DNA from: a virus
Taxonomy: Duplodnaviria > Heunggongvirae > Uroviricota > Caudoviricetes
Length of the DNA stretch: 51,277 nucleotides
Virus record (IMG/VR): IMGVR_UViG_2851955134_000001
Direction: 5' to 3' (one strand)
Made by a program: the position numbers and the translations under genes. Positions 1 through 19,786 of this stretch are shown one piece after another; the stretch's first letter is position 1; each line of letters begins with the position of its first letter. Below the pieces are notes generated by a model that saw only the letters and a list, made by a program, of their open reading frames with translations, ran no database searches and was not told where the DNA came from.

Positions 1-576
1 TCACCATCCAACCCTGTACGCCAGAATGGTTTCACTGTCACTCAGTTCTGCTATTGCCTTTTTCATCTCCCTTTGCCTTATATGTATTTCAAGGCCTTTC
101 CTGAACATCGCTTTACCAGCAGCATCACTCAGGGATATCAGTTCATCTGCCGTCATCGGTACATCATTATTCTCTGCGTCCGTCCAGAAAAATCCTTCCG
201 GCAACACACCGCCTCTGGCCGCTGATGCCGACATTCCAAGACGTGTCATGGTTTCCTTTCCATAATCCCATTTCCGTCCTCTGTGCTCAAAAACATACCC
301 TGACGCCTCCATCGCATCACGCCAGGCATTTATCTCCGCGTTTTTCATCCTGCGTGCTTCTTCCACAGCCATATCATCATTTGCCCGGTACTCACCTACC
401 GGCCCTGCATCACCTCTTATGCAGGCTTCAAATATTTCACGACCGTAAGACTCAGGATCATCCGCACTTGCTGTAAATACACATTCTGTTTCCGCGTCTG
501 AAAACTTCACTATACAGTTTATGGTCGTATGACCCCTGTCAGCCCACACTGGTGACGTGATTTTATCGACCTTCAT
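1..576 (-). CDS. tail fibre assembly protein (Tfa-like); start at 576, 3' end runs off the window
   Basis: ORF open to position 1; ATG at 576 preceded by GGGGAG RBS; lies 15 bp downstream of stf as in lambda stf-tfa; Tfa-like from recalled lambda Tfa. Confidence 0.6.
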   Translation of the reverse strand: MKVDKITSPVWADRGHTTINCIVKFSDAETECVFTASADDPESYGREIFEACIRGDAGPVGEYRANDDMAVEEARRMKNAEINAWRDAMEASGYVFEHRGRKWDYGKETMTRLGMSASAARGGVLPEGFFWTDAENNDVPMTADELISLSDAAGKAMFRKGLEIHIRQREMKKAIAELSDSETILAYRVGW

Positions 577-591
577 TCATTTCTCCCCCTG

Positions 592-2325
592 TCACAGTAT
601 TCTCTGAAACAGGCCCCAAATCGTCCCACTGATATTATTCACCGCCATGTTAGTTGTGCATAACATCCATGTACCAAGCATAGGATTGCCAAATAAAAAG
701 CGGATATCTGTAAGTTTATCCGATGACGACGACACAATAACGGCCTGTCTGATACGATACCCGGGTATTTGACGGGTATTTGTTATCTCATGATTTCGTT
801 CTATGATCCCCAGAACATAAGACCCCACGGAATAAACACTTCCGACGCTCGCTGGCCGCCCCGCTTCTCCTCTTGGCCCCTGTGGACCTGCCGGACCGCG
901 TTCACCTGTATACCCTCTTGGCCCCTGTAGACCTGCCGGGCCGCGTGCTCCTGTATCCCCCTTTAGTCCCTGTGGACCTGCCGGGCCGCGTTCACCTGTT
1001 TCACCTTTTGGTCCCTGTGGACCTGCCGGGCCACGTTCACCTGTATCGCCCTTTGGTCCCTGTGGACCTGTCGGGCCACGTGCTCCTGTTTCACCTTTTG
1101 GTCCCTGTGGACCTGCCGGGCCGCGTGCTCCTGTATCCCCCTTTAGTCCCTGTGGACCTGCCGGGCCGCGTGCTCCTGTATCCCCCTTTAGTCCCTGTGG
1201 ACCTGCCGGACCGCGTTCACCTGTATCCCCCTTTAGTCCCTGTGGACCTGCCGGGCCACGTTCACCTGTATCGCCCTTTGGTCCCTGTGGACCTGCCGGG
1301 CCACGTTCACCTGTATCGCCCTTTGGTCCCTGTGGACCTGTCGGGCCACGTTCACCTGTTTCACCTTTTGGTCCCTGTGGACCTGCCGGGCCGCGTTCAC
1401 CTGTTTCACCTTTTGGTCCCTGTGGACCTCCCGGATCTCCTTTATCCCCCTTAGGGCCTTTTTCTCCTCGCTCACCCTTTTCTCCCTTCAGACCCTGAGG
1501 GCCTTCCGGACCACGTGCACCTGTTTCGCCCTTTGCTCCCTGTGGACCTGCCGGGCCGCGTTCACCTGTTTCACCTTTTGCTCCCTGTGGACCTTCCGGA
1601 CCACGTGCACCTGTTTCGCCTTTTGGTCCCTGTGGACCTGCCGGGCCGCGTTCACCTGTATCGCCCTTTGGTCCCTGTGGACCTGCCGGACCGCGTTCAC
1701 CTGTTTCACCTTTTGGTCCCTGTGGACCTGCCGGGCCGCGTTCACCTGTATCGCCCTTTGGTCCCTGTGGACCTGCCGGACCGCGTTCACCTGTTTCACC
1801 TTTTGGTCCCTGTGGACCTGCCGGGCCACGTGCTCCTGTTTCACCTTTTGGCCCCTGTGGCCCGGTAATGCCTCTTTCACCACGAGCGCCGGTATCCCCT
1901 TTCTCTCCTCGTGGTCCCCGGGCAGATGCTGCTCGCTTCCGGGCTTCCTCCGCCTCAGATGCCGCGGACTCTGCTCTGTGCAGTATGGACTGCACCACAG
2001 CCTCCAGCTCTGACAACGCCTTCGGATAATAAGCAGCATCTTCCATCTCCATCAGAAATTTATTCAGTGTTCCCGGTGAAGAATCCTCCCTGACCACGAT
2101 ATCTCCCACATACGAAGGACGGTAACCTTCTGTATTGAGTGTCACCCTGTATATTCCTGGCTCCACATCCATACTGTAACTCCCCGTCTCTTCCGGCATG
2201 CCATAAGCCACTGTCGTGGCGATGACTGTCTCGCTGGTTCTCTTCGCTTTCAGCTCAATAATGCATCCCGGTACCGGTTTTCCGGTTCCGTCCCTGAGCA
2301 CGCCTGAAATTTTTACAGCCGCCAT
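592..2325 (-). CDS. side tail fibre protein (Stf-like) with long collagen-like Gly-X-Y repeat region
   Basis: N-terminus [18 protein letters not shown] resembles recalled lambda Stf N-terminus; about 340 aa of GPxGPxGxxGxRG repeats; ATG at 2325. Confidence 0.8.
865..1870. repeat. tandem ~45-bp coding repeats (collagen-like GxY units) inside stf
   Basis: Visible periodic reiteration of cctgtggacctgccgggccgcgttcacctgt... units; all six frames stay open across the array. Confidence 0.85.
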
Positions 2326-2458
2326 ACTCGCTCCACAAATAAAAATAATCCCGCAAAATTGCGGGCGTCGTCATTCATTTACAATCGGGTGTTTTTATGA
2401 TTACTGTAACCGGCTCATTTAAACCGTCTGGTCTGTTTCCTCCGGCTCTACAAAAATA

Positions 2459-3136
2459 ATGTCCATCATTTTTAATGGACACTATCGTATGAAACACCGG
2501 ACCTGGATCACTGAAGCTTTACGTCTTCACTTTGAAGAACATTTACCCCGGGTTGTGGCCGGGCGTCGCCTGGGTGTACCAAAATCAACAGTTTGCAGTA
2601 TGTTCGTGCGCTTTCGGAGAGCTGGCCTTTCGTGGCCTTTGCCCGCAGGCATGTCGGAGCAGGAACTTGATGCCTGCCTTTACGGACAATTTTCCACGGT
2701 ACCAGTCGTACGTCCTGAAAGCACCGTTATATCCGAAGCCCCCGTGGTAAAAAAACGTCCCCGGCGGCCCAACTTCCCTTATGAGTTTAAAATCGCCTTA
2801 GTGGAACAGTCACTGCAGCCCGGAGCCTGTGTGGCGCAGATCGCCCGGGAAAACGGAATCAACGATAACCTGCTCTTCAACTGGCGCCATCAATACCGGA
2901 AAGGTGGCCTGCTGCCTTCCGGAAAAAATATGCCGGCACTGCTTCCCGTGACGTTAACGCCGGAGCCGGATAATAAAATCCCGGCTCCGGCACAGGAACC
3001 AGAGCAGATAAATACACCGTCCGACAGTCTGTGTTGTGAGCTGGTTCTGCCGGCCGGAACTCTCAGGCTTAAAGGTAAACTGACGCCGGCGTTATTACAG
3101 ACACTTATCCGCGAAATAAAAGGGAGCAGCCACTGA
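2459..3136 (+). CDS. IS66-family accessory protein TnpA (start may be the internal ATG at 2489)
   Basis: First ORF of the IS; stop overlaps the tnpB start (ATGA at 3136). Confidence 0.65.
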   Translation: MSIIFNGHYRMKHRTWITEALRLHFEEHLPRVVAGRRLGVPKSTVCSMFVRFRRAGLSWPLPAGMSEQELDACLYGQFSTVPVVRPESTVISEAPVVKKRPRRPNFPYEFKIALVEQSLQPGACVAQIARENGINDNLLFNWRHQYRKGGLLPSGKNMPALLPVTLTPEPDNKIPAPAQEPEQINTPSDSLCCELVLPAGTLRLKGKLTPALLQTLIREIKGSSH

Positions 3137-3483
3137 TGATATCTCTCCCTGCAGGTTCGCGTATCTGGCTGGTTGCCGGTATCACCGATATGCGAAATGG
3201 CTTTAACGGCCTGGCCTCAAAAGTTCAGAACGTCCTGAAGGATGACCCGTTCTCCGGACACCTGTTCATCTTCCGCGGACGCCGGGGTGACCAGATAAAA
3301 GTGTTGTGGGCTGACAGTGACGGACTGTGCCTCTTCACCAAACGCCTGGAGCGGGGCCGCTTCGTCTGGCCGGTTACCCGTGACGGCAAGGTGCACCTTA
3401 CTCCGGCTCAGTTATCTATGCTTCTTGAAGGTATCAACTGGAAGCACCCGAAACGAACGGAACGCGCTGGCATTCGCATATAA
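3136..3483 (+). CDS. IS66-family TnpB (Orf2)
   Basis: 115 aa with sequence MISLPAGSRIWLVAGITDMRNGFNGL... characteristic of IS66 Orf2, as recalled. Confidence 0.85.
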   Translation: MISLPAGSRIWLVAGITDMRNGFNGLASKVQNVLKDDPFSGHLFIFRGRRGDQIKVLWADSDGLCLFTKRLERGRFVWPVTRDGKVHLTPAQLSMLLEGINWKHPKRTERAGIRI

Positions 3484-3502
3484 CCCGTTGTAAAGTGAGG
3501 AT

Positions 3503-5074
3503 ATGGACACCTCACTTGCTCATGAGAATGCCCGCCTGCGGGCACTGTTGCAGACGCAACAGGACACCATCCGCCAGATGGCGAAATACAACCGCCTGCT
3601 CTCACAGCGGGTGGCGGCTTATGCTTCCGAAATCAACCGGCTGAAGGCGCTGGTTGCGAAACTGCAACGTATGCAGTTCGGTAAAAGCTCAGAAAAACTT
3701 CGTGCAAAAACCGAACGGCAGATACAGGAAGCACAGGAGCGAATCAGCGCACTTCAGGAAGAAATGGCGGAAACGCTGGGTGAGCAATATGACCCGGTAC
3801 TGCCATCCGCCCTGCGCCAGTCTTCAGCCCGTAAACCGTTACCGGCCTCACTTCCCCGTGAAACCCGGGTTATCCGGCCGGAAGAGGAATGCTGTCCTGC
3901 CTGTGGTGGTGAACTCAGTTCTCTGGGATGTGATGTGTCAGAGCAACTGGAGCTTATCAGCAGCGCCTTTAAGGTTATCGAAACACAACGTCCGAAACTG
4001 GCCTGTTGCCGGTGCGACCATATCGTGCAGGCACCGGTGCCTTCAAAACCCATTGCACGCAGTTATGCCGGAGCGGGGCTCCTGGCCCATGTCGTCACCG
4101 GAAAATATGCAGACCATCTGCCGTTATACCGCCAGTCAGAGATATACCGCCGTCAGGGTGTGGAGCTGAGCCGTGCCACACTGGGGCGCTGGACTGGTGC
4201 CGTTGCTGAACTACTGGAGCCGCTGTATGACGTCCTGCGCCAGTATGTGCTGATGCCCGGTAAAGTCCATGCTGATGATATCCCCGTCCCGGTCCAGGAG
4301 CCGGGCAGCGGTAAAACCCGGACAGCCCGGCTGTGGGTCTACGTCCGTGATGACCGTAACGCCGGTTCACAGATGCCCCCGGCGGTCTGGTTCGCGTACA
4401 GTCCGGACCGGAAAGGTATCCATCCACAAAATCACCTGGCCGGTTACAGCGGTGTGCTTCAGGCCGATGCTTACGGTGGTTACCGGGCGTTATACGAATC
4501 CGGCAGAATAACGGAAGCCGCGTGTATGGCTCATGCCCGGAGAAAAATCCACGATGTGCATGCAAGAGCGCCCACCGACATCACCACGGAAGCCCTGCAG
4601 CGTATCGGTGAACTGTATGCCATCGAGGCAGAGGTCCGGGGCTGTTCAGCAGAACAGCGTCTGGCGGCAAGAAAAACCAGAGCCGCGCCACTGATGCAGT
4701 CACTGTATGACTGGATACAGCAACAGATGAAAACACTGTCGCGTCACTCAGATACGGCAAAAGCGTTCGCATACCTGCTGAAACAGTGGGATGCACTGAA
4801 CGTGTACTGCAGTAATGGCTGGGTGGAAATCGACAACAACATCGCAGAGAACGCCTTACGGGGAGTGGCCGTAGGCCGGAAAAACTGGCTCTTCGCGGGT
4901 TCCGACAGCGGTGGCGAACATGCGGCGGTGTTGTACTCGCTGATCGGCACATGCCGTCTGAACAATGTGGAGCCAGAAAAATGGCTGCGTTACGTTATTG
5001 AGCATATTCAGGACTGGCCGGCAAACCGGGTACGCGATCTGTTGCCCTGGAAAGTTGATCTGAGCTCTCAGTAA
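3503..5074 (+). CDS. IS66-family transposase (TnpC)
   Basis: 523 aa; N-terminal leucine-zipper-like region, CxxC zinc motif and C-terminal region typical of IS66 transposases. Confidence 0.9.
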
Positions 5075-5107
5075 ATATCAATACGGTTCTGACGAGCCGC
5101 TTACTGA

Positions 5108-5353
5108 TTACTTCACGCACGAAACTTTCGTAAACATATCTTCACTCACCCACTGACCATAAAATCTCGGAGCTGATACTTTATACACAGTGCCGCTTTT
5201 CGTTTCTATTTTCCCTGTAAGATCTACCGTATAAGCTCGCTGTAAAACCCCGGGACTCAGCACACCGGTGCACCGGACTCTCTCCGTAACGGAACTGTAC
5301 CCCGCGCAACCTGATACAAGAAACAGCAAAAAAGTGCAGACGATTATTTTCAT
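5108..5353 (-). CDS. small lipoprotein downstream of tail genes; possibly Cor-like superinfection exclusion protein
   Basis: Signal peptide with lipobox LVSGC; 81 aa; the position after the J/tail region matches where cor sits in phi80/HK022-type phages. Confidence 0.45.
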   Translation of the reverse strand: MKIIVCTFLLFLVSGCAGYSSVTERVRCTGVLSPGVLQRAYTVDLTGKIETKSGTVYKVSAPRFYGQWVSEDMFTKVSCVK

Positions 5354-5374
5354 TACATGCCCTCAACATAACTA

Positions 5375-6037
5375 TCAGTACGCATCATAAATTTCTGCAT
5401 TTATGTAATAACAGAGGTTATTAACAACACCTGAATTATCATTGGGCGCCGCTACGTTATCTTCAGCAAAAGTTGACTGACGCCATAACTGTGAGTTTCT
5501 GGCATTAAAACTGGCGGTATACCAGTAATAACTCTCCCCTTCCTGAACTGTCGTCCACTGGGTACACCCCGGCATTACGGCCACATCATGTCCCACACTG
5601 ATCGGTACATCCTTTTCCCATATTCGCGTCATTTTTACTTCCAGTGGCAGCATTTCCGTGTTCCAGACCACCCTGCCATGACTGTCGCACAACTGTATTC
5701 CCCATTGCGGCCATACATTCACCATGTTGGCAAAAACATAAACAACATATGTGCTGTCCTGTTCCATGCCCGGCTCCTGCCCTGTACCAGCGCTGAAAAT
5801 GTCATACTGCCAGGTACCGTTAAGCTGAACCATTTCACCATGGAAGGACTGATTACCGCTTATCTGTTTAATAAAAATCACGCAACGATAATTCGTCGGC
5901 ACCCCGGTGTCGATAAACTGCATCACCGCATCACGCGCACTCAGTGTGAAATGAAAACGGCGCACAAGGTTCAGTGGCGGCGCAACAGGTGATATCCATT
6001 CTCTCCCCCGCTCATCAGTTAATTTAAGTGCAAACAT
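5375..6037 (-). CDS. hypothetical phage protein in the tail tip region
   Basis: ATG at 6037 with AAGGGGGA RBS; 220 aa; no recognisable motif. Confidence 0.5.
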   Translation of the reverse strand: MFALKLTDERGREWISPVAPPLNLVRRFHFTLSARDAVMQFIDTGVPTNYRCVIFIKQISGNQSFHGEMVQLNGTWQYDIFSAGTGQEPGMEQDSTYVVYVFANMVNVWPQWGIQLCDSHGRVVWNTEMLPLEVKMTRIWEKDVPISVGHDVAVMPGCTQWTTVQEGESYYWYTASFNARNSQLWRQSTFAEDNVAAPNDNSGVVNNLCYYINAEIYDAY

Positions 6038-6297
6038 CAGATCCCCCTTATCATGACCAGCACGGGTCTTAGCCAGCTTGTGTTGGCATAGTGCACTGTC
6101 CAGCCGGATACACTGGCACTGGTATGACTTCCCTGACCGTTAATCAGAATGGCCGGTGAACAGACTTCCAGACGCCAGCCCTGCAAAGGAGTATAAGAAC
6201 GCTGCCCCGTCCCTTCAGTGATCACATCCAGCACCCCTGTTGGGTTTATTTCATGTGTCACAAGGCGCCCTTTGCGCCATACCCGGACTCCGAACAT
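6037..6297 (-). CDS. hypothetical small protein translationally coupled to J
   Basis: ATG overlaps the J stop (TAATG); GGGGAG RBS inside the J 3' end. Confidence 0.4.
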   Translation of the reverse strand: MFGVRVWRKGRLVTHEINPTGVLDVITEGTGQRSYTPLQGWRLEVCSPAILINGQGSHTSASVSGWTVHYANTSWLRPVLVMIRGI

Positions 6298-9200
6298 TAC
6301 AGTCTCCCCAGTCGTACTCTTAACACATTGTTATCGTCATATACGTCGATTCGCTCGCCATTGAAAAACAGGCGGCCTGCGCCGGGCCTTCCTGAGTTAA
6401 TTTCAAGGCTGCCGTTTCTTGATAAACGCCACCCCGGACTACCGGAATGAAAATTATCTGACCGGATATCTCCCGTCACTCTGGCAAAATCCACGGTCAG
6501 TTTTTTCATGAAAACATCATTCATGAACAGCTGATCACCCTGAGCCACAAACAAAGGTGTTGTATTGCCATTTTCCGGGTTAATCATCGCAATACGATCT
6601 GCCTGCATCAGGATCTGACTCTGAATTCCGTCAGACGTATTTTCGATTCCGGCACCAATACCTGCAATATAGAGACGTCCATCCCGTGTCTGCTGCAGCT
6701 TCACAGCCCACATGCTGTTCAGGTTCCGGCGCGTGTCCTCCTGAACTTTCTGTATCTGCTCAATGCTGGCATTCCAGGATCCCAGTTTTTTATCCGTGCT
6801 CTGTGTGATCTGACTTCCCTTATCATCAACATACTGTCTGATCTGCGCTATCTGTCGGCTGTTCTCCTCCGTGCTCCTGCTTACTGTCTGCCGGATTTCG
6901 CTGCCCATCCTGTCAACTTTTCTGTCAACTTCCGCAATGGCCATTGACTGTTCAGCGCTCTTTTTCGCCACAACAGTACTTATTTGCGCACTTTTATCAT
7001 CAACATACTGCCTGACCTGCGCTATCTGTCGGCTGTTCTCCTCCGTGCTCCTGCTTACTGTCTGCCGGATTTCACTGCTCACGCTGTCAACTTTCCTGTC
7101 GACTTTCGCAATGGCCAGCGACTGTTCACCGCTCTTTTTCGCCACAACAGTACTTATTTGCGCACTTTTATCATCAACATACTGCCTGACCTGCGCTATC
7201 TGTCGGCTGTTCTCCTCCGTGCTCCTGCTTACTGTCTGCCGGATTTCACTGCTCACGCTGTCAACTTTCCTGTCGACTTTCGCAATGGCCAGCGACTGTT
7301 CACCGCTCTTTTTCGCCACCAGTTCCGTTATGCTGTTTTCAGACGCCGTGATTTTTTTCGTCACCTCTGCGATATCACGCTCCGCACGCTGCCTCACATC
7401 TTTCTCCAACTGCGTCATTTCGCGGTTAATCGCATTCTCCAGCTGCGTCATTTCGCGGTTAATCGCATTCTCCAGTTGCTCAACTTCAGTGCGCCGTGCA
7501 GAGGCATCAATGCGTTCATTGATCTCCCGTCCCAGATGCGTTTTATTTATCGCCCCCCTGAAAAAATTAAGGTAACCGGCAGGATCATTACTCGCCCGAC
7601 CGACTGCCTCCACGAATGCCGATTTACCGACAGTGTTAACACTGCGGATATAAAAGTAATAATCATGGCCAGGCTTAATATTCTGGCCGGAGACAAGCCA
7701 CTGAGTTCCGGTACCAAGATAACGGGCTGTGGTTTCAACCTGCCTGATATCGGTAATCCGCTTTTCCGAAAACCAGAACTCAAACTGCACCGTCGGATCA
7801 TAAACGGCAAGATGCGGCGTGGCGGTTATCTGAAAATAGCCCGGCGTCAGCTCAATCCGCGACGGCGCTGCCGGTGCGGCAATCCGGAACGATACCGACG
7901 CCGGGTCTCCCTGCTGCCCCCGGGCATTTACTGCCCGGACTGTCAGCCTGTAGTTCCCCGGCGCCAGCTGCCTGAAGCGGTATGTGGTTTCCGTCGTCCG
8001 GGCCGTGCTGACCAGCCGCTCACTGCCGTCATCCGCTGCCACGGTCAGGCGAAGCATGAAACTCACGCCTTTCACCACCTTCGGCGTGTCCCAGCGGGCC
8101 AGTACCTGATACTCCCCGCTGTCTGCGGTGACTTCGACAGTCAGGTGCTGCACTGCTGGCGGCGTGACACCATTCACCGTGCCGCTCTGGTCACCGTCAA
8201 AGTGTGCCCCGTTATCCACGATGCCCTCTTTTTCCGGTACATGCTGCACGGCAGTGATGGCATACGTGCCGTCGTCGTTCTCACGGATACTCACGCAGCG
8301 GAACAGGCGCTGGCGCAGCGTCGGCAGCTTCAGCCCCCACACGCTGTACTCGGCAACGCCGTCAGGAACCCGGCTCACTTTTACCTTCACGCCGTCGGTG
8401 ACGGACTGAACCTCCACGCTGACCGGATTGCCACTTCCGTCAACCAGGCTTATCAGCGTGGTACCGGAGGATGGCAGCGTGATTTCACGGTCGAGCGTCA
8501 GCGTCCGGGTCTGGCTGTTCACCGCCAGCACACGACCACCGGTGCTGATACCGGCATAGTCATCATCACAGATTTCAATGACATCGCCCGGTACATGGCG
8601 AAGCCCTTCAGCACCCACGCTGAAATCCACGGTCTGCGTCTCCAGCAGTTCTGTTTTAATCAGCCACAGCCCGGCGCGGTGTGCCTGCCCCCGGCTGGTA
8701 CAGCCAAAGGCATCCATCTTCGTGACGTTACGACCGTAACGGGCAATGGCCTGCGTATCTTCAACAAGCTCTGTCGCCGTCTCCTGGCCGTTATCCGGGT
8801 CACTCCAGTTCACCTCAACGGCATTATGGCGGTCCTTCAGGGCGCTGAAGCTGTAGCGGAACGGCGCGCCATCATCCGGCATCACCACATTACTGCGGTT
8901 ATAGGTCCACACCTTATCCGACGGTCGGTCCTGCACGAACGTCAGCGTCTGCCCGTTCCATACCGGCATACAGCGCATCGCCGAGCAGAAATCACTGAGC
9001 ACATCCCACGCCTTACGCTGTGTGGTCAGCCAGGCATTACAGGTGATGCGCGGCTCCGTGCCGCCAAAGCCGTCCGGCACTGACTGGTCGCAGTACTGGC
9101 CGATGACATACAGCGCCCATTTATCCACATCCGCTGCGCCAACACGTTTCCCCATGCCGTAGCGCGGATGGGTCAGCATATCCCACAGACACCAGGCCGG

Positions 9201-10013
9201 GTTGTTGCTGTATGCCGGTTTAAACGTTCCGTCCCAGATACCGCTGTATTGCCGCGTCTGCGGGTTATAGTTCGACGGCACCTGCAGAATGCGCCCGCGC
9301 AGATGATAATTACGGCTCACCTGCTGGCTGCCGAACTGCTCCGAATCCACCTGCACACCGACCAGTGCCGTGTTCGGGTAGCACTGTTTCACATCGATAA
9401 TTTCGGTGTATGACGACCAGAGCGTTTTGTTCTGCAGCTGGTCTGTGGTGCTGTCCGGCGTCATCCTGCGCATCCGGATACTGAACGGGCGCGGCGGCAG
9501 GTTATCCACCACCACCGAAGCCAGATACTGCGAGGTGGTTTTTCCCTTAATGGTGATGTCTTTTTCCGTTAACCAGCGACCGTTACGCTGTATCTGAACC
9601 AGCAGGCGGACTTCCGACGGATTCCGGTCCCCCTTTGAGGTGGTTTCCACCAGTGCCTGCACACCGAAGGTCAGGCGCAGACGGTCGATGTTTGCCGATG
9701 TGATGGTCCGGGTAATCGGCGTGTCGTACTTCACTTCCGTACCCAGCACCGTCTCGGAGCCGGAGGATTCAAATCCCTCCGGCGGCGTCTGCTCCTGCTC
9801 ACCGGCCCGGAATACCACCGTGACGCCGGATATATTGGTATTCCCCTCACTGTCCAGCACCGGCGTACCGTTCAGCAGCACGCTTTTTAATCCATCCACC
9901 GGTCCTTGTATCGGCCCTTCGCTGATGACATCGATCACACTCAGCAACTGCGTGGACTTCAGGTTGTCCTTCGCTTCGCGCGGGGTATGCCCCTTACTGC
10001 TGCCTTTACCCAT
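6297..10013 (-). CDS. J: tail tip / host specificity protein J with divergent C-terminal region
   Basis: First ~1000 aa closely match recalled lambda gpJ ([24 protein letters not shown]...); C-terminal part contains a coiled-coil repeat insertion and a short divergent end. Confidence 0.9.
6795..7320. repeat. three tandem ~174/177-bp repeats inside J (58-aa coiled-coil units)
   Basis: gctatctgtcggctgttctcctccgtgctcctgcttactgtctgccggatttc recurs at 6847, 7021 and 7198; a shorter 30-bp duplication follows at 7421/7451. Confidence 0.85.
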
Positions 10014-10073
10014 TCCTCACGCTCCATAAACGACAAAACCGCCCGGAGGCGGTTTCACATAAAACGTTTTTCA

Positions 10074-10721
10074 TCAGCGACCAATCACCACAACCCGGAC
10101 GCCATCCCCCTCATCCGCTGTGCTGATCTCCTGCGAAATTACCCGTGACCCCACGCGCATTTCACCGTACAGAACGGGCAGAGCATTCCCCTGGGCAACC
10201 ATGTTATCCAGTGAGGAGAAATAGGTGTTCTGTTTGCCGTTATCCGTGGCTGATACTCCGGGCATTCTGGCTTTCGGTGCCAGCATCTGCGCCACACCAC
10301 CGAGCACCATACTGGCCCCTGCCGCATACATGCCCGATAAAGCCGCAGCCCCCAGCCAGCCTGCAGGGTTCCACCATGCCACCGCAATCAGCGCCGCGCC
10401 CAGCACTGCCTGAAACACACCACCACGTTTGGCTCCCGCCAGACGCGGCACGATGTGGATCACGGCACCATTTGCCAGCGGTTCATTAAGACGGGCTGAT
10501 AATTCGTTTTCGCCTGTATCACGCCCGGCAATACGCACCTGATACCAGCCGTCGCTCAGTTTCTGACGAAACGCAGGGAGCTGCGTGGCCAGCGCCCGGA
10601 TGGCTTCGGCTCCCGTTTTCACACGAAGGTCGATGCGGCGGCCAAATCGTTGCAAATCCCCGTAAAGGCAGATGCGTGCCATGCCCGGTGACGCCAGAGG
10701 GAGTGTGTGCGTCGCTGCCAT
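10074..10721 (-). CDS. I: tail assembly protein I
   Basis: MAATHTLPLASPGMARICLYGDLQRFGRRIDLRV... matches recalled lambda gpI. Confidence 0.9.
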   Translation of the reverse strand: MAATHTLPLASPGMARICLYGDLQRFGRRIDLRVKTGAEAIRALATQLPAFRQKLSDGWYQVRIAGRDTGENELSARLNEPLANGAVIHIVPRLAGAKRGGVFQAVLGAALIAVAWWNPAGWLGAAALSGMYAAGASMVLGGVAQMLAPKARMPGVSATDNGKQNTYFSSLDNMVAQGNALPVLYGEMRVGSRVISQEISTADEGDGVRVVVIGR

Positions 10722-11362
10722 TTGTCGGTATACCTCTCTCGTTTGCTCAGTTGTTCAGGAATATGGTGCAGCAGCTCACCGTCGCCGCAGTAAATGGCGG
10801 CATGATTCGGCACCGATGAACCAAAACAGCACAGCAGCACATCGCCCGGTTGTGCTGATGACAACGCCACCTGATACAGCCCTGTGGCCTCCAGATTATC
10901 CAGATAGAGATTCTGACCTGATTTCCACCAGTCATCATGTCGGTAAAAATCCGGCAAATCGATACCTGCAAGATGATAGGCATCGCGGAACAGCGTGTAA
11001 CAGTCCGTCACCCCGTGCTCAAAACGCCGCCCGGTGAGATGCGGCACACAGCGGAACTTATGAATCGTCCCCCGGCAGACCAGCCACCACGGCAAATCAC
11101 TCTGCACCTGCAGCCGCCGGTCGGCCTCACTCAGCCAGGGCAGACCACCGGGGTGGCTGTGGACCAGCGCCACAATCTCACCCTGCATTTCTGCCCGCAG
11201 CCAGTCCTCCGGCGACATCCGGAAATACGCCTCCGGCTCACCGGAGATATTCACGCAGGGAAAATATCTTTCCCCCTCCGGCGCTCTCACCACGAAGCCG
11301 CACGACTCCGCTGGCGCACATCGCCGGGCGTGCGCCAGAATCGCTGATTCTGTCTCTGTCAT
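10619..11362 (-). CDS. K: tail assembly protein K
   Basis: Matches recalled lambda gpK from ...AESCGFVV onward; ATG at 11362; overlaps I as in lambda. Confidence 0.9.
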   Translation of the reverse strand: MTETESAILAHARRCAPAESCGFVVRAPEGERYFPCVNISGEPEAYFRMSPEDWLRAEMQGEIVALVHSHPGGLPWLSEADRRLQVQSDLPWWLVCRGTIHKFRCVPHLTGRRFEHGVTDCYTLFRDAYHLAGIDLPDFYRHDDWWKSGQNLYLDNLEATGLYQVALSSAQPGDVLLCCFGSSVPNHAAIYCGDGELLHHIPEQLSKRERYTDKWQRRTHSLWRHRAWHASAFTGICNDLAAASTFV

Positions 11363-11366
11363 GGAA

Positions 11367-12065
11367 TTACTGCGAAAGTTTGTGAATGGAAAGGAAGCCG
11401 CCAAAGTTGCCGACGTTATTGCGGAACTTACAGCCGCTCAGGCATTTGCTGCATTTATCCTTCGTGATATCGGACGTCGGCTGATCATATTCATCCGCGA
11501 CCGCCGGACCGCTATAACCGCACTCATCGCCGCGATAGGTCCAGGTGCAGGTGTTGGCCAGCATGATACGTCCCGGAAAAACAGCGCCGTCCGTTTCCGT
11601 CGGCGTGGCCAGTACAAAGGTCGCGCTGACCGCTGTCAAATCACTGCACTGCTCGATGCGCCAGCGGCTGATAACCTCCTGCTCCGGATCGGCGTCACGG
11701 TTTCCGTTGACGAAGTTCACCGCATCCAGAAAACGGGCATAAACTTTACGCCGGACCACCGTTCCGCCGACCAGACTCTGCATATCTTCCACCATACCGG
11801 TGACCATACCGTACAGGTTAGAAACCGTCAGCGTGGGGCGCGTACTGGTGCCTTTGCCATTCAGTTCAAAACCACTCCCCTGAATGGGATACGGCTGATA
11901 CTGCCGCTCCTGCCAGGTGACCGGCTCACCTTTTTCGTTCTGCTCATTACAGAAAAAATAACGTTCGCCACCGACCTCTGTCAGATCGATTTCCCAGAGC
12001 ACCACGCTGGCCGACTGCTCCGCACGGGTGCATTCATTCAGTGTTTCCTGCCGGATATCCTGCAT
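11367..12065 (-). CDS. L: minor tail protein L
   Basis: MQDIRQETLNECTRAEQSASVVLWEIDL... matches recalled lambda gpL. Confidence 0.9.
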   Translation of the reverse strand: MQDIRQETLNECTRAEQSASVVLWEIDLTEVGGERYFFCNEQNEKGEPVTWQERQYQPYPIQGSGFELNGKGTSTRPTLTVSNLYGMVTGMVEDMQSLVGGTVVRRKVYARFLDAVNFVNGNRDADPEQEVISRWRIEQCSDLTAVSATFVLATPTETDGAVFPGRIMLANTCTWTYRGDECGYSGPAVADEYDQPTSDITKDKCSKCLSGCKFRNNVGNFGGFLSIHKLSQ

Positions 12066-12394
12066 CAGTTCACCACCTGTTCAAACTCTGCGCTGAACTC
12101 AACACGCAGCATACTGACCCGCGACGACCATTTTGCGCAGGTCACCTTTATCTGCCGCCACTCATAAGGCGGCGTCCACAGAAAGGCCTTCCAGCCCCCG
12201 TGCTCAGCCAGAAACGACTCCAGCGCCGTGGCCTCCTCACGGGGGACAGAAAGCGTCACGCTGTACGTTTTCAGGTCGGCATTCAGCCCGGCAGGCGCTC
12301 GCTGGGAATAGCCATCACCAAAGCGCACTTTCCTGACGGAAGGGGCCGAAGCCACATCCATACCGGGTTTCACTTTCCAGCGGAAGGTCTTCAT
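12065..12394 (-). CDS. M: minor tail protein M
   Basis: MKTFRWKVKPGMDVAS... matches recalled lambda gpM. Confidence 0.9.
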   Translation of the reverse strand: MKTFRWKVKPGMDVASAPSVRKVRFGDGYSQRAPAGLNADLKTYSVTLSVPREEATALESFLAEHGGWKAFLWTPPYEWRQIKVTCAKWSSRVSMLRVEFSAEFEQVVN

Positions 12395-14970
12395 CGTCCA
12401 CCTCCGGAGAACAGACCACCATCGCGCATCTGTGCCTGAATTTCATCACGGGCACCCTTGCGGGCCATGTCATACACTGCCTTCATCATCTGTGGACCTG
12501 GCAGACCATTCGTACCGTCGTTCTGAATCACCACGTGATTGTTCTGATTAAAATTAATGCCTTCAGCCCGCCGCATCTGCGCCGGACTTCCGGCACCGCC
12601 CACATAACCACCTTCCGCATAGCCCCGCATCAGGCGGTACAGGTTGCCGACACCAATCCGGCTGGTTGCCTCCTTCGTGAAGACAAATTCACCACGGTGA
12701 ACAATCCCCGCTGGCTCATATTTGCCGCCGGTTCCCGTAAATCCCCCGGTCGCAAAATGGAATTTTGCCGCAGCAGCCTGAATGGCTGTACCGCCTGACA
12801 CTGATGCGCCACCACCGGCAGCACCGCCAATGACGCTGCCGATACTCCCGACAATTCCCACCATTGCCTGCTTAAGCAGAATTTCTGTCATCATGGACAG
12901 CACGGAGCGGGTGAAGCTGCGCCAGTTCTGTTCACTGCCGGTCAGCATCGCCGCCATATTCTGCGCAATACCATCAAAGGTCTGCGTGGCAGCACTTTTA
13001 ACCTGCGACATACTGTCCGTGGCACTCTCTTTCCACTCGCTCCAGCCGGACTTCAGGCCTGCCATCCAGCTCCCGCGAAGCTGGTCTTCAGCCGCCCAGG
13101 TCTTTTTCTGCTCTGACATGACGTTATTCAGCGCCAGCGGATTATCGCCATACTGTTCCTTCAGGCGCTGTTCCGTGGCTTCCCGTTCTGCCTGCCGGTC
13201 AGTCAGCCCCCGGCTTTTCGCATCAATGGCGGCCCGTTTTGCCCGTTGCTGCTGTGCGAATTTATCCGCCTGCTGCGCCAGCGCGTTCAGGCGCTCCTGA
13301 TACGTAACCTTGTCGCCAAGTGCAGCCAGCTGGCGTTTGTACTCCAGCGTCTCATCTTTATGCGCCAGCAGGGATTTCTCCTGTGCAGACAGCTGGCGAC
13401 GTTGCGCCGCCTCCTCCAGTACCGCGAACTGACTCTCCGCCTTCCACAAATCCCGGCGCTGCTGGCTGATTTTCTCATTTGCTCCGGCATGCTTCTCCAG
13501 CGTCCGGAGTTCAGCCTGAAGCGTCAGCAGGGCAGCATGAGCACTGTCTTCCTGACGATCGCCCGCAGACACCTTCACGCCGGACTGTTTCGGCTTTTTC
13601 AGCGTCGCTTCATAATCCTTTTTCGCCGCCGCCATCAGCGTGTTGTAATCTGCCTGCAGGATTTTCCCGTCTTTCAGTGCCTTGTTCAGTTCTTCCTGAC
13701 GGGCGGTATATTTCTCCAGCGGTGTCTGCAGGCGTTCGTAAGCCTTCTGCGCCTCTTCGGTATATTTCAGCCGTGATGCCTCAGAGTCGGCCCAGTCCTT
13801 TGCTGCCATCTCTCTGGCCTTTTCAAGATCGGCCTGCAACGTGGCGGCTGAAAGCCCAAGTTGCGCATTCGCTCTGTCCTCCCATGCTCCCCGGAGATTG
13901 GCAAGAAATGCTGAGGTTTTACCGCGCCGGTGGCTCCGGCTCTGATACCACTGCCATTTTTTGTCCGCCTCATCAAAAGCCTTTTCTGCTTTCTCCAGCA
14001 TTTCCCGGGCAGTGTCCGGGCGACCAATATCCAGCACCGAATCCCACATGGATTTGAATGCCCGCGCTGTCCTGTCTGCCCAGGTCTCCAGCGTGCCCAT
14101 GTTCTCTTTCAGGCGGCGGGTCTGGTCATCAAACCCTTTCGTTGCGGCCTCGTTCGCCGCCTGCAATGCCCCGGCCTCATCGCCGGAACGCTGCAACTGA
14201 GCAACATACGCAATCTGCTCCGCCGTCACGTTATGGAACTGACGCGCCATCGCTGTCAGCCCTGACGTCGGGTCTGTGGTCAGCTTCCCGAAGGCTTCAG
14301 CGACCTTGTCCACCTCCACGCCGGATGCAGAGGAGAAACGCGCCACACTCTGGCTGATGGATGCAATCTGAGCCTCACCGCTTACTCCCGCCTTAACCAG
14401 TGCGCTGAGTGACTCGCTGGTCTGGTTAAACGTCAGCCCTGCCGCCTGCCCGGCTCTGGACAGGACCAGCATGCGATCTGCCGTCAGACCCGACTGATTG
14501 CCGGAAAGGACCAGCGTTTTGTTGAAATCGGACAGGGTTGAGTTGCCCTGATACCAGGCATACGCCAGCGCACCGGTCGCCACCGCCAGCGAGGTGGCCC
14601 CGACCATCGGCAGGGTGATCGCACCGGCAAGCCCCCTGAACATGGGGATCATCCCGCCGAAGGAGTCCTTCACCTGACCACCCTGTTGCAGCAGGATCAG
14701 CCACGGACTTTGCCCGCCTGCAAGCTGCGTGGCCACGTCGGTGAACTGCGCAGGCAGCATACGCATGGCGGCTTTATACTGTCCGACGGAAATCCCCGCT
14801 TTCTGTGCAGCCAGCGCCTGTCGGCTCAGCGACTGTTCAACGACTGCCGCTGTTTTTTTCGCATCACTTTCCGTACCGGAAAAATGACGCCTGACTCTGG
14901 CCATCTGCTCGTCAAACCTGGCCGCATCCAGACTTAAATCAACGACCAGATCGCCTACCGGTTCAGCCAT
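12391..14970 (-). CDS. H: tail tape measure protein H
   Basis: 859 aa, lambda gpH-like in sequence and position. Confidence 0.9.
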   Translation of the reverse strand: MAEPVGDLVVDLSLDAARFDEQMARVRRHFSGTESDAKKTAAVVEQSLSRQALAAQKAGISVGQYKAAMRMLPAQFTDVATQLAGGQSPWLILLQQGGQVKDSFGGMIPMFRGLAGAITLPMVGATSLAVATGALAYAWYQGNSTLSDFNKTLVLSGNQSGLTADRMLVLSRAGQAAGLTFNQTSESLSALVKAGVSGEAQIASISQSVARFSSASGVEVDKVAEAFGKLTTDPTSGLTAMARQFHNVTAEQIAYVAQLQRSGDEAGALQAANEAATKGFDDQTRRLKENMGTLETWADRTARAFKSMWDSVLDIGRPDTAREMLEKAEKAFDEADKKWQWYQSRSHRRGKTSAFLANLRGAWEDRANAQLGLSAATLQADLEKAREMAAKDWADSEASRLKYTEEAQKAYERLQTPLEKYTARQEELNKALKDGKILQADYNTLMAAAKKDYEATLKKPKQSGVKVSAGDRQEDSAHAALLTLQAELRTLEKHAGANEKISQQRRDLWKAESQFAVLEEAAQRRQLSAQEKSLLAHKDETLEYKRQLAALGDKVTYQERLNALAQQADKFAQQQRAKRAAIDAKSRGLTDRQAEREATEQRLKEQYGDNPLALNNVMSEQKKTWAAEDQLRGSWMAGLKSGWSEWKESATDSMSQVKSAATQTFDGIAQNMAAMLTGSEQNWRSFTRSVLSMMTEILLKQAMVGIVGSIGSVIGGAAGGGASVSGGTAIQAAAAKFHFATGGFTGTGGKYEPAGIVHRGEFVFTKEATSRIGVGNLYRLMRGYAEGGYVGGAGSPAQMRRAEGINFNQNNHVVIQNDGTNGLPGPQMMKAVYDMARKGARDEIQAQMRDGGLFSGGGR

Positions 14971-15397
14971 ACCGGACTCCTCCTGCGACCCCTTCTGATA
15001 CTGTCATCAGCATTACGTCATCCTCCGTCATGTCCGCCACATCCGGGGATGCAGGGATAACTTCATTCCCGTCCGGACCAAAGCGGACGCCTCCGGCAAG
15101 CCCTGCCGCTTTCTGCATCAGCACATCATCTTCAGGCTCTTCGTCAGCCTCACGCCGGTTCAGCAGACTGAAATCCAGCGGATGCATATCCGGATCGCTG
15201 AAAAACAGGCTGAGCACGGTGTACGTCAGCCCGGAAAAGTGCATATCCAGCAGAACATCATGAAAATAATGGGTACTGTAAAAGCGGTGCCAGTCGGCAT
15301 ACTCCGTGGATGACATCCCGGCAAGCATGGCACGCCAGTCGGGTCGCCCCATCTCGCGCGCCAGTTTCAGGGCAAAACTCAGCTCACCGTCGAACAC
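14963..15397 (-). CDS. T: T segment of the G-T tail assembly chaperone (expressed by -1 frameshift from G)
   Basis: Overlaps the 3' end of G; slippery GGGAAAG lies just upstream of the G stop; lambda-like. Confidence 0.8.
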   Translation of the reverse strand: MFDGELSFALKLAREMGRPDWRAMLAGMSSTEYADWHRFYSTHYFHDVLLDMHFSGLTYTVLSLFFSDPDMHPLDFSLLNRREADEEPEDDVLMQKAAGLAGGVRFGPDGNEVIPASPDVADMTEDDVMLMTVSEGVAGGVRYG

Positions 15398-15801
15398 TTT
15401 CCCGCAGAAACAGGCTCTGCGGGCCCGGCGTCCTCTGTCTGTTCAGGGGCATTATTCACCACAAACTCAGACATACCGGACAGCCGGTACACCACGTTTT
15501 GAGCATGAGAAATTGCCTGCGTGGGCCAGGTGGTAAGCACTTCCTGCTCAATCTGTTTAACGGCTTCATTCATGGACGGCATCTGCGTTTTCTGTGGATG
15601 GTTATGCCACAGGGACATCGCCACCAGAAACGCGCCGGTTCTGACGAGATCTTCCACGCTTACCTGCAGGTTGCCGCTGGATTCTGCCTGTTCTGCACGC
15701 CGTTTCAGGAGGGCAAGATGCTCGATACGCTGCAGCGCAGACAATTCGGAAAGCGTGACAGACACACCGTTATATTCAAATTGTTCTGTTTTCAGAAACA
15801 T
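15379..15801 (-). CDS. G: tail assembly chaperone G
   Basis: MFLKTEQFEYNGVSVTLSELSALQRIEHLAL... matches recalled lambda gpG. Confidence 0.9.
   Translation of the reverse strand: MFLKTEQFEYNGVSVTLSELSALQRIEHLALLKRRAEQAESSGNLQVSVEDLVRTGAFLVAMSLWHNHPQKTQMPSMNEAVKQIEQEVLTTWPTQAISHAQNVVYRLSGMSEFVVNNAPEQTEDAGPAEPVSAGKCSTVS
15397..15403 (-). other. programmed -1 ribosomal frameshift slippery heptamer GGGAAAG (G to G-T)
   Basis: Plus-strand ctttccc at 15397-15403 is the reverse complement of GGGAAAG, placed at the G/T overlap. Confidence 0.75.
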
Positions 15802-15814
15802 GTATTACCTCCGT

Positions 15815-16567
15815 TTACCCTGCAGCGCCCGCTTCAGTAACGGTGACTTCAGCCACTGCGGCGAACTGACCATTTCCGCTCACCACAGGGATCTGCACCT
15901 TACCTGTCGCCACGCCGTTTACCGTAATTGTCATATCTTTCACACTAATGGTGGCTTTCGACGGATCGGCGGAAACCGCTCTGAACGTCTTGTCGGTTGC
16001 ACTTTCCGGCTCAAAAGAAACCGTCAGGGTGGTTGTTTTCCCTTTTGCCACCGTACCGGATGTCGGCGTCACCTTAATCGCACTGACCGGCGTAATTTTG
16101 CTGCGTTCTTCCGCTACAGAAGGTTTACCCACGTTAGTGACTTTCACCGTGCGGGTGATCACTTCCTTCGCTGTCACCGCCTTACCGATGCTGCTGACCC
16201 AGCCGCGGAACACATCGACCGTGCCGTTCGGGAAGCGGATTTTATAGGCACGGGTATCACCTTCATTAAACCACGCCAGCAGCGCCTGCTGCCCCTGCTC
16301 TCCGGGCATCCACGCCAGCGTGAAGCTGGTATCTCCGGCGGATTTCTGCCCCTGTCCGGTCGCGGCCCAGTCCGCATCTTCATCATCGAGATAACTGTCG
16401 TCATAGGACTCAGCGGTCAGTTCGCCGGGCGTCAGGTCTTTAACTTTAGCCAGACGCGACCAGTCAACGTCTGAAAGCGGATTCGCATAAGGGTCACCGT
16501 TCCCCTTATAAACCCACAGTGTGGTCCCGGCCCCTTTCACCGGTGCCAGAGGATTTGGTGTTGGCAT
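15815..16567 (-). CDS. V: major tail protein V
   Basis: [22 protein letters not shown]... matches recalled lambda gpV; ATG at 16567 with GAGGAC RBS. Confidence 0.9.
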
Positions 16568-16574
16568 ATCGTCC

Positions 16575-16970
16575 TCACATTTCATAGGTAATGACATAAG
16601 TCAGATCGGCTGAACTCCACAGGCCCGCATCATCGTCGCGCCGGTAGTCATAGCCACTGGCCACCATACTGGTGATCAAATCTGACAGTGCCGGGATATC
16701 GCTCATCACCGGATAAATCCGGGACTCCATCCACGAATCCAGCTCTGAATCCGGCACCTGAGCAGGCAGGAAAACTTCAATATGCAGCTCCGCCTGCCAG
16801 GTATCGCTGTCCAGCTCTTCGCCCGTGTATTCAGCGCCGGTGAGATAAACGGCAACTGCCGGAAAATCCGCCTCATCAAAAACAGCGGGGCGACCATCAA
16901 AAAGCGTCGCCCCGGTGTCATGTTTTTCCAGTGCATCCAGTACGGCTGTACGGATATCAGTATTTTTCAT
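16575..16970 (-). CDS. U: tail terminator protein U
   Basis: Matches recalled lambda gpU. Confidence 0.9.
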
Positions 16971-17542
16971 CGCTTTATCACAATCCTCAGTTGTTGTTTC
17001 AGCGCATAGCTCAGTTCTTTTGGCAGACGTTCGCGTCGGATACGGTTAACGTTCTCATCAAAAGCCTGTTTCAGTGGGGCCGACATCGGAATTTTCACCA
17101 CCTGAATGGGAAGACGATTACGCTTTTTCCTTCCCTTATCGTCATTGCCCTTCGCATACCTGGCTTCTGGCAGACGTTGCATAACATGCCAGCGCCCATT
17201 ATTCAGTCGCTGGATGAATGCCCGCTGATAACGATGCTGACCGGCTTTGAGTATGCTGTTCGGGCGACGTCCCAGCATCCTGATCCCCAGCTTAATCACA
17301 GGAAGATCGCCGCGGTTAACGATAATTTTTGCGTTCGGATTTCTGACCGTAGCCCGTTTCAGTCTGGATCGCTCTTTAACAAGTTTTCTCGGCACCCGGG
17401 TTTCACGGGCGACCTGAGACGAAGACTGATTAATCGCCGTTGTGGCCACGCGGTTAATGGCCATTGCTGACGCACCGGGCACCGCCGTTCTGCTGATACG
17501 GCTGAGGTTTTCAACGGCCTGCTCAAGACCCTGTATGGCCAT
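16967..17542 (-). CDS. Z: tail completion protein Z
   Basis: Matches recalled lambda gpZ. Confidence 0.9.
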   Translation of the reverse strand: MAIQGLEQAVENLSRISRTAVPGASAMAINRVATTAINQSSSQVARETRVPRKLVKERSRLKRATVRNPNAKIIVNRGDLPVIKLGIRMLGRRPNSILKAGQHRYQRAFIQRLNNGRWHVMQRLPEARYAKGNDDKGRKKRNRLPIQVVKIPMSAPLKQAFDENVNRIRRERLPKELSYALKQQLRIVIKR

Positions 17543-17553
17543 ACATCCCCCTT

Positions 17554-17916
17554 TCAGCGGCGACGATTAACGGCAGGCGGTACGCCCCGCCCAAGCCAGA
17601 GATGACAGCTTCCGCCATCATCCGGCGAAACCCGGTCTATCCAGAAGTTTTCCTCACCGATGGTCAGCGTGTCTCCACGCCGCAGTTGCCGCACATCATC
17701 AGTCCGGACAAACAGGGACGGGCTGGAGCCTTCAACGCGCACGCCCTGTCCGGCATAGCTGATATTTTCAGGGTCATCAAAAACACCACGTATTACTGCG
17801 CCGGGCTGCTCACCGGATGTAATGGTGGCTGACGTTCCCATATGCCCGCGTATCGTTTCATCAGCCCGGGCAATGGCTGTATCAAAACCGTTATCCCTGA
17901 TATTAATAACTTTCAT
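17554..17916 (-). CDS. FII: head-tail joining protein FII
   Basis: ...AIARADETIRGHMGTSATITSGEQ... matches recalled lambda gpFII; ATG at 17916. Confidence 0.85.
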   Translation of the reverse strand: MKVINIRDNGFDTAIARADETIRGHMGTSATITSGEQPGAVIRGVFDDPENISYAGQGVRVEGSSPSLFVRTDDVRQLRRGDTLTIGEENFWIDRVSPDDGGSCHLWLGRGVPPAVNRRR

Positions 17917-18265
17917 CTGTAACAAGCCCCTCCAGGACAAGTTCCGCAACATTCACTGGATCAACTCTGACAGTCATACCTGTAACAACAATCTCCATAT
18001 CACTGTCATCATGCGGATGTTTTCCCGCCACATGCAGGGTTTTGAGTACACGAACAGTGCTCATTTCATCCCCGCCAGTGGAGTGGCTATACGTCATCAA
18101 ATGCCTTTCGTTCTCATCACTCGCCTGGTTTTTGTCCTCTGCTTCCTCTTCCCATTCCGCCACCCGCTGCGCTATCTCTGCGGCACTCCCGGATATATCC
18201 GGCTCACGCCCCAGAATCAGGGCCAGTTCATCAAGCCGTTTCAGATTTTGCTCTTTCGTTGCCAT
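17903..18265 (-). CDS. DNA packaging protein in the FI position (not lambda FI-like in sequence)
   Basis: Located between E and FII; acidic 120-aa protein; ATG at 18265 with GGGGG RBS. Confidence 0.55.
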   Translation of the reverse strand: MATKEQNLKRLDELALILGREPDISGSAAEIAQRVAEWEEEAEDKNQASDENERHLMTYSHSTGGDEMSTVRVLKTLHVAGKHPHDDSDMEIVVTGMTVRVDPVNVAELVLEGLVTDESY

Positions 18266-18316
18266 ATCAGCCCCCTGTGAAAAAAGACACGGGGGCATTT
18301 CGCCCCCGCTCACGGA

Positions 18317-19345: not shown

Positions 19346-19402
19346 AAATCAGTTCCTTTCATTCAGAAATCAGTCAGGCCACCGCGGTGGCCTGATAACG
19401 TG

Positions 19403-19750: not shown

Positions 19751-19786
19751 ATTGTAAAAACCTCCTATTGATGGTCAGCACTGGCT

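Follow-up and report, generated by a model that had tools for sequence, protein, structure and literature searches.

A lambdoid prophage gene for a probable side tail fibre with a long collagen-like shaft, and variation of its 45-bp repeat number among related loci

The window, by which we mean the whole stretch of 51,277 nucleotides that was analysed (IMG/VR record IMGVR_UViG_2851955134_000001), carries near its first end a minus-strand gene for a protein of 577 aa in which a long run of Gly-X-Y triplets lies between a tail-attachment domain and a small C-terminal domain. The remainder of the window belongs to a lambdoid prophage that is situated beside tRNA-Ser and mtfA and has a full lambdoid set of head, tail and lysis ORFs. 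The features in and around the gene are as follows.

1..576, minus strand: DUF4376 gene, 191 aa, in the position of lambda tfa (Pfam PF14301, E 2e-20; PHROG 1141 'tail fiber protein')
592..2325, minus strand: side tail fibre gene, 577 aa, with collar, helical neck, collagen-like shaft and 86-aa C-terminal domain (Pfam and PHROG)
595..852, minus strand: C-terminal domain, 86 aa, presumed trimerisation and receptor-binding knob, of narrow distribution
853..1419, minus strand: collagen block 2, aa 303-491, 63 triplets, the expanded block (17-37 triplets in relatives)
869..1860, no strand assigned: tandem 45-bp array (Tandem Repeats Finder and a second repeat search)
1417..1440, minus strand: GDPGGPQG register break, aa 296-303, the single one-residue interruption of Gly-X-Y
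1423..1917, minus strand: collagen block 1, aa 137-301, 55 triplets (triplet scan and unit table)
1918..2043, minus strand: neck, aa 95-136, 42 aa, within the PF08400 match, presumed alpha-helical
2044..2319, minus strand: collar (tail-attachment) domain, aa 3-94, homologous to lambda Stf residues 2-93
2350..2365, minus strand: terminator-like hairpin CCCGCAATTTTGCGGG with a T-run, between the IS and the fibre start codon (consensus scan only)
2406..5104, plus strand: IS66-family element, 2699 bp, with tnpA, tnpB and tnpC (Pfam matches, ends and target duplication)

The N-terminal part of the protein is that of a phage tail fibre. Pfam assigns residues 3-133 to the prophage tail fibre N-terminal family (PF08400, E 3e-40), the product as a whole matches PHROG 366 'tail fiber protein' (E 1.5e-129), and a phmmer search against the PDB aligns residues 3-94 with the collar of the Ur-lambda side fibre Stf (9E7M chain Ta and 9MGH, E 3.4e-30) at 61% identity (56 of 92 positions). 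These PDB entries represent the tail tip complex with the side-fibre collar domain of Ur-lambda, where residues 1-91 of Stf form the collar and its loops touch gpV and gpM; the virion has four trimeric side fibres, whose binding to OmpC speeds adsorption, and Stf is an accessory, non-essential protein (PMC12617516). The neck that follows the collar is presumed to be alpha-helical by analogy with PfN, the last ~30 residues of which were predicted to be helical (Ghosh 2012, PMC3368898). The genetic context agrees with this, as the tip protein gene J, recognised by J-specific Pfam domains, lies upstream at 6297-10013 and the order of J, small ORFs (two here), fibre and a small gene matches that of annotated relatives. 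We put at roughly 90% the probability that the product of the gene at 592-2325 is the side tail fibre of a lambdoid prophage, in which a collagen-like shaft replaces that of lambda and lengths vary by whole units.

The shaft is encoded by a single tandem array, for which Tandem Repeats Finder reports 22.4 copies of 45 bp with 83% matches and a score of 1142, and in which the second repeat search found 18 copies in register, spaced 45 bp apart except for one jump of 75 bp across divergent central units. In the ORF list the array falls within the 1734-bp minus-strand frame, and a triplet scan of the translation places Gly at every third residue through 55 triplets, then one extra residue, then a further 63 triplets. 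The total is 118 triplets or 354 residues, or 355 aa (137-491) when the break residue is counted, spanning positions 853-1917. The GDPGGPQG break is kept in those relatives whose sequence was printed, in the form GNPGGPQG in strain Ch1. Cut into lengths of 15 aa, the region yields 24 units, the last of which extends into the C-terminal domain, with 18 distinct DNA sequences; identical neighbours occur as C-D-C-D at 1648-1827, L-L at 1240-1329 and N-N at 1105-1194, and two divergent central units lie at 1423-1512. The longest exact direct repeat has 119 bp (offset 90), and next come repeats of 75 bp (offset 270) and 64 bp (offset 45); the array has a G+C content of 63% against 52% for the whole window. 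The other long ORFs in the array, at 873-1454 and 1515-1868 on the plus strand and, out of frame, at 1233-1475 and 1488-2039 on the minus strand, are by-products of the repeat.

An earlier, sequence-only reading had described this region as a collagen-like side tail fibre, and both parts of that description are borne out: the first by the 118 triplets and by the match to Pfam Collagen (PF01391), whose E-value of 1.2e-59 excludes chance, and the second by PF08400, the collar homology and the place of the gene downstream of J, between it and the DUF4376 gene. Its extent of 865-1870 and its figure of about 340 residues were close, though slight underestimates, and gave no strand. The term 'near-identical' suits some neighbouring units and not the array as a whole, given the 18 sequences among 24 units and the divergent pair at its centre.

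The C-terminal 86 aa have no Pfam match and none in the PDB at E<=10. Among 1.84 billion representative proteins searched with phmmer, the domain's own cluster was its sole true relative, the other matches being spurious hits to unrelated repetitive proteins, and a word-indexed search returned only four partial proteins. Relatives are identical to it at 79-86 of 86 residues, and because the available homologues are >90% identical no deeper alignment is possible. Pairwise BLASTP gives a weak similarity to the C-terminus of ORF-401 of phage P-EibA (27% identity, E 0.001; the ending ...LFQRI is common to both), which phmmer did not recover. A single-sequence AlphaFold2 model of aa 476-577 is all-beta, of low confidence (mean pLDDT 48) and too poor for a fold search. 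The PfC domain of EPclA trimerises and renucleates the triple helix (Ghosh 2012, PMC3368898), and by analogy with it the domain described here probably serves in trimerisation and receptor binding.

Of the genes around the fibre, that for the DUF4376 protein is kept beside it in relatives; the protein has no relative that we could find in the PDB and is predicted to be probably a fibre assembly or accessory protein, outside the lambda Tfa family. The remaining scanned proteins adjoining the fibre gene were those of the IS66-family element, J, and small ORFs without assignment. The IS66-family element lies 80 bp upstream of the fibre start codon and is oriented against the fibre gene. It is bounded by inverted repeats, GTAACCGGCTC and GTAAGCGGCTC, and by an 8-bp target duplication, TGATTACT, at 2398-2405 and 5105-5112, and its insertion site is uninterrupted in E. 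coli TUM1886. With the element so close upstream and the terminator-like hairpin lying between it and the start codon, late transcription of the fibre gene may be reduced or abolished, so that the fibre may be poorly expressed in the window's prophage.

For comparison of repeat number, 13 loci with the same N- and C-terminal domains were taken from complete E. coli genomes, and ten of these were tabulated alongside the window gene. In the ten relatives the 136-aa N-terminal and 86-aa C-terminal regions are nearly unchanged, with 403-407 of 408 bases identical in the DNA of the former and 253-261 of 261 in that of the latter (97-100%). Triplet counts, in contrast to these flanks, run from 73 to 102 in the relatives against 118 in the window, mostly in steps of five triplets (45 bp).

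118 triplets: window locus
102 triplets: Ch1
102 triplets: 24A16CRGN010
97 triplets: NRZ14408
97 triplets: LR-31
97 triplets: F1022
97 triplets: B771
92 triplets: strain 135
82 triplets: ECCNB12-2
78 triplets: TUM1886
73 triplets: GF60
73 triplets: TUM9803

Individual collagen blocks measure 35, 45 or 55 triplets, 17, 23, 28, 32, 37 or 63, and 15, 20 or 21. GF60 differs from the window at one of 669 flanking coding bases and has 45 fewer triplets, equivalent to two units of block 1 and seven of block 2. The TUM1886 prophage, which is 99.8% identical to the window over 19 kb and mosaic elsewhere, has the same block 1 but for one base change, and its deficit of 40 triplets (eight units) falls entirely in block 2. 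An 87-aa globular insert separates the collagen blocks in eight of ten relatives and is not present in the window, TUM1886 or GF60, a distribution consistent with the collagen repeats acting as recombination sites for gain and loss of domains. Among approximately 115 database relatives with the PfN domain the maximum is 97 triplets, and the window has the longest collagen run among the relatives examined. As to the tip protein, a 174-bp (58-aa) repeat in J is present in three copies in the window and two in TUM1886, and the few annotated J lengths of the relatives show no obvious pattern against side-fibre length.

The suggestion that fibre length might vary between strains was therefore well founded, since the number of repeats differs among relatives (73, 78, 82, 92, 97 and 102 triplets against 118) between flanks that are 97-100% identical in DNA. 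This variation holds at the level of lineages. Six genome records from five strains, namely NRZ14408 (two independent assemblies), LR-31, F1022, DG342-2 and DG341-1, carry one and the same 601-aa allele (WP_202888934.1), which tempers the idea that length may differ between cells; the array is thus not hypermutable on short timescales and has been stable over epidemiological time.

The same reading had warned of assembly collapse, and for trouble in assembly there is indirect support, in that draft contigs often break inside the array. Among the database relatives there are many 'partial' collagen-like proteins, which form clusters of 8-41 sequences and come from contigs of 0.3-2.3 kb with ends inside the array. 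A difference between full-length draft proteins (35-64 triplets) and complete genomes (73-118) was considered as a sign of collapse and dropped, as a 441-aa form also occurs on multi-Mb contigs.

These observations bear on the first of three rival explanations, in which the array is real and the copy number in the window is an assembly artefact, units having been placed in excess or left out. Short reads do not resolve exact repeats that reach 119 bp within a 45-bp periodicity extending over ~1 kb, and the contig edges of relatives inside the array point the same way. The window also has the highest triplet count in the family sample; its 577-aa sequence is found nowhere else, the exact protein being absent from a collection of 15 billion proteins; no complete E. 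coli genome covers >=80% of window positions 1-2460; and the DNA of that interval matches no phage record apart from the IS end. The unit count of the window therefore rests on one assembly. We nevertheless think an artefact quite unlikely, as the frame is intact, the variants stand in an ordered and non-trivial succession with 18 distinct units among 24, block 1 agrees with that of TUM1886 unit for unit except for the one base change, and complete genomes independently carry 97-102 triplets. The intact frame and the order of the variants argue that the unit count is real.

A more serious alternative, possible in our view though doubtful, grants that the gene is intact and holds that the prophage is decaying, with the IS cutting off the genes for the fibre and the DUF4376 protein from the late operon and the array being a neutral expansion in an unexpressed gene. 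The IS with its target duplication 80 bp from the start codon, its opposed orientation and the intervening hairpin all speak for this, as do the TUM1886 prophage, where a near-identical arm that aligns to the window gap-free has an integrase annotated as frameshifted, and the IS66-family elements that adjoin or truncate the DUF4376 gene in GF60, TUM9803 and strain 135. Drift, however, should lose such features as a 1734-bp frame that stays open through ~1 kb of repeats and glycines that are kept in 118 of 118 triplets; IS-free relatives have almost the same flanking domains, the head, tail and lysis ORF set of the prophage is full, and late transcription antiterminated by a Q-type protein could pass through the IS. 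It is far less probable that the gene encodes a bacterial cell-surface adhesin of the Scl1/Scl2 or Legionella Lcl type, carried by the prophage as cargo and forming no part of the virion. The NCBIfam models adhesin_Lcl, SclA and SclB do match the collagen region (E 1e-70 to 4e-76), and relatives adjoin genes for eib/YadA-like surface proteins, but the bit scores are far short of the curated cut-offs (256 against 500, 252 against 400 and 239 against 325), the N-terminus is the lambda Stf collar domain in place of a signal peptide, and the gene sits in the stf position after J. With scores below threshold and confined to the Gly-X-Y repeats, the Scl/Lcl identity was rejected.

For a side tail fibre of variable length, which remains the preferred reading, we infer the following mode of action. 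The collar domain, comprising the ~94 N-terminal residues, would dock the fibre on the tail in the manner of Ur-lambda Stf trimers at the gpV/gpM junction, presumably with four trimers per virion. Three chains would form a collagen-like triple helix of 354 residues with a length of ~100-102 nm (354 x 0.288 nm per residue), split into 47.5 and 54.4 nm at the GDPGGPQG break, which may act as a kink. At its far end the 86-residue C-terminal domain would probably nucleate trimerisation and contact the host surface, and the DUF4376 protein would probably help in fibre assembly. Whole 45-bp units (15 aa, five triplets) could be gained or lost in frame, by unequal homologous recombination or replication slippage, because exact matches between units reach 119 bp, more than the few tens of bp that RecA needs for efficient recombination in E. 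coli. Each such event would change the length of the shaft and the reach of the fibre, with a possible effect on adsorption, and would leave both ends of the fibre the same.

It is tempting to go further and to regard fibre length as a selected trait, in which changes of 45-bp units adapt reach, between ~63 nm (73 triplets) and ~102 nm (118 triplets), to a thicker or thinner layer of O-antigen or capsule, with J tuned in parallel by its 174-bp repeat. We consider this unlikely on present evidence; if true, it would amount to a repeat-based adjustment of adsorption that does not change the receptor-binding tips. Whatever the role of length, near-identical prophages that stand eight to nine whole units apart constitute a natural allelic series (73, 78 and 118 triplets with the same ends), of value for asking whether shaft length affects adsorption or host range. 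For annotation, the gene is better described as a side tail fibre of the EPclC type than as a bacterial collagen adhesin, and since draft assemblies break in the ~1-kb repeat, copy number in such genes needs confirmation with long reads.

Collagen-like proteins of E. coli prophages (EPclPs) were described by Ghosh in 2012 as EPclA to EPclD, among which Col domain lengths differ in multiples of three residues; formation of a thermally stable triple helix was demonstrated for EPclA and EPclB only, and recombinant EPclA was found to be a trimer with the circular dichroism (CD) signature of collagen and the form of a dumbbell-shaped rod of expected length (PMC3368898). The window protein resembles these proteins in having PfN followed by a (Gly-X-Y)n Col domain with the same residue preferences. 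In EPclPs the X position holds Pro in 48.1% and D or E in 35.6% of cases, K/R, T, Q and A are preferred in Y, and GPQ, GPK, GPA, GER and GET are the commonest triplets (PMC3368898). In the window protein X is Pro in 48.3% and D or E in 34.8%, Y is R or K in 43%, T in 20%, Q in 18% and A in 14%, and the commonest triplets are GPQ, GPA, GER and GPK; its GDPGGPQG break also fits the G-X-P-G-G-P-X-G interruption.

Within this group the C-termini of EPclC and EPclD are unrelated to PfC, and EPclC often has no PCoil (PMC3368898). The window protein likewise has no PF06820 match and no PCoil, with a 42-aa neck between collar and collagen, and its domain order, X/Y composition and interruption motif fit the EPclC architecture. 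The nearest phage counterpart is the EPclC type member, P-EibA ORF-401-like (AF151091), the only phage record to align end to end by tblastn. The two share 102 of 133 identical residues in PfN, the lack of a long PCoil region, the GDPGGP break and a C-terminus that is not PfC and ends in LFQRI(L/V), as well as the context of J ... fibre - orf191, with ORF-191A identical to the window's DUF4376 protein at 98 of 169 residues. They differ in their collagen, which in ORF-401 forms two short domains, of 117 and 75 aa, on either side of a non-collagen segment and in the window protein runs for 355 aa with only the one-residue break; ORF-401 also follows lom, the place of which is filled in the window by two other small genes and the IS. 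EPclA (for example ECs2717 of O157:H7 Sakai) resembles the window protein in its PfN start, its collagen shaft with the same X/Y preferences and its C-terminal globular domain, but its 116-aa PCoil, its 81-111 collagen residues and its C-terminus of the PfC type (PF06820) are all features that the window protein does not have. The EPclD protein Stx2-86_gp21 is similar in that its collagen domain is very long and has one G-X-P-G-G-P-X-G interruption, and differs in its 88-aa PCoil and its C-terminus; at 322 aa its collagen domain was by far the longest of any EPclP in 2012 (PMC3368898), compared with the 355 aa found here.

Ur-lambda Stf (P03764) shares the tail-module position and the collar domain, 61% identical over 92 aa, whereas the remainder of that fibre consists of a coiled coil and beta shaft with a T4 gp37-like OmpC-binding tip and is served by the chaperone Tfa. 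In Pfam the window fibre has no match to PF03406 (Phage_fiber_2) or PF07484 (Collar), its 86-aa tip domain is unrelated to the tip of Stf, and the gene downstream is DUF4376 with no match to Caudo_TAP. Outside this group, variable-length Gly-X-Y stretches also occur in the host-recognition proteins of Streptococcus thermophilus phages (antireceptor/Tal) and in ORF8 of the virophage Guarani, which are unrelated proteins from unrelated hosts; collagen repeats in host-recognition proteins of other phages have already been proposed as recombination hotspots, and an in-frame loss of repeats in Guarani ORF8 has been linked to a change of host range. The locus is accordingly an unusually long member of a known family, whose variability was already outlined in 2012, and no new kind of system; what is novel here is minor, and consists of the longest collagen run among the relatives examined, the IS upstream of the gene and the 174-bp repeat polymorphism in J.

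Relative to TUM1886, an E. coli genome with a closely related prophage (locus L005), the prophage of the window is a mosaic. Identity is 99.8% over the early and lysis arm (31433-50524) and 97-99.8% over the tail-tip region (5101-12069); the head and tail-shaft genes between them (12069-29781) have no match there. Further features of the window, by position, are as follows.

595-852, minus strand: orphan C-terminal domain of the fibre protein, 86 aa
2350-2365, minus strand: terminator-like hairpin CCCGCAATTTTGCGGG, then ATTATTTTTA (consensus match only)
2398-2405 and 5105-5112: 8-bp target duplication TGATTACT flanking the IS66-family element
2406-5104: IS66-family element (tnpA, tnpB, tnpC), 2699 bp
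5108-5353, minus strand: ORF of 81 aa whose product has a lipoprotein-like signal (…LVSGC…); sub-cut-off match to the Cor model
6297-10013, minus strand: gene J (tail tip protein and central fibre), 1238 aa
6820-7319, minus strand: tandem repeat in gene J, with 2.9 copies of a 174-bp (58-aa) unit at 96% matches
47157-48207: integrase region, with an ORF at 47157-48182

The array in gene J is a second length-variable tandem repeat of this prophage, beside that of the collagen-like side tail fibre gene. It has three copies of the 174-bp unit in the window and two in TUM1886, where J is 1180 aa long, and outside this difference the two genes are 97-99.8% identical. The central and the side fibre are thus both longer in the window prophage than in TUM1886, its closest relative.

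In most relatives of the fibre protein the collagen blocks are separated by an 87-aa non-collagen insert (SARGQLLNGDLNRLGRVTDQGDYYQ…WSEWKELGA), found at aa 384-470 and aa 369-455 in two loci of complete E. coli genomes (L001 and L003, respectively) and also in most database relatives (P0001-P0033), and absent from the fibre proteins of the window, TUM1886 and GF60. This insert looks like a globular knob that was acquired or lost via recombination within the collagen repeats. The C-terminal domain has no match in Pfam or PDB, and comparison with 1.84 billion representative proteins gave no true relative beyond its own cluster.

The IS66-family element is inserted upstream of the fibre gene, 80 bp from the start codon; in TUM1886 the corresponding site is empty. 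Since IS66-family elements adjoin the fibre gene or truncate the neighbouring DUF4376 gene in three further genomes (GF60, TUM9803 and strain 135; ISCro1-type in the first two), insertion around the fibre locus is recurrent. The hairpin lies immediately upstream of the fibre ribosome-binding site. On the other side of the element, the stop codon of the 81-aa ORF falls inside the target duplication; this ORF scores 28.7 bits against the model of the phage exclusion lipoprotein Cor, slightly under the 31-bit cut-off, and the equivalent stretch of TUM1886 carries no annotation.

In the near-identical arm of TUM1886 the integrase is annotated as frameshifted, and as the window aligns with it without gaps and its ORF ends 25 bp before the annotated end, the window integrase may be defective at its C-terminus.

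An eib/YadA-like gene, for an immunoglobulin-binding surface protein, lies closely downstream of the fibre–DUF4376 pair in relatives (L001, L003, L006-L008, L010 and L012-L016). The window starts within this fibre–DUF4376–eib module, such that the eib position lies outside its sequence. Like these relatives, P-EibA, the prophage of the EPclC type member (ORF-401), has an eib-type gene downstream of its fibre–DUF4376 pair.
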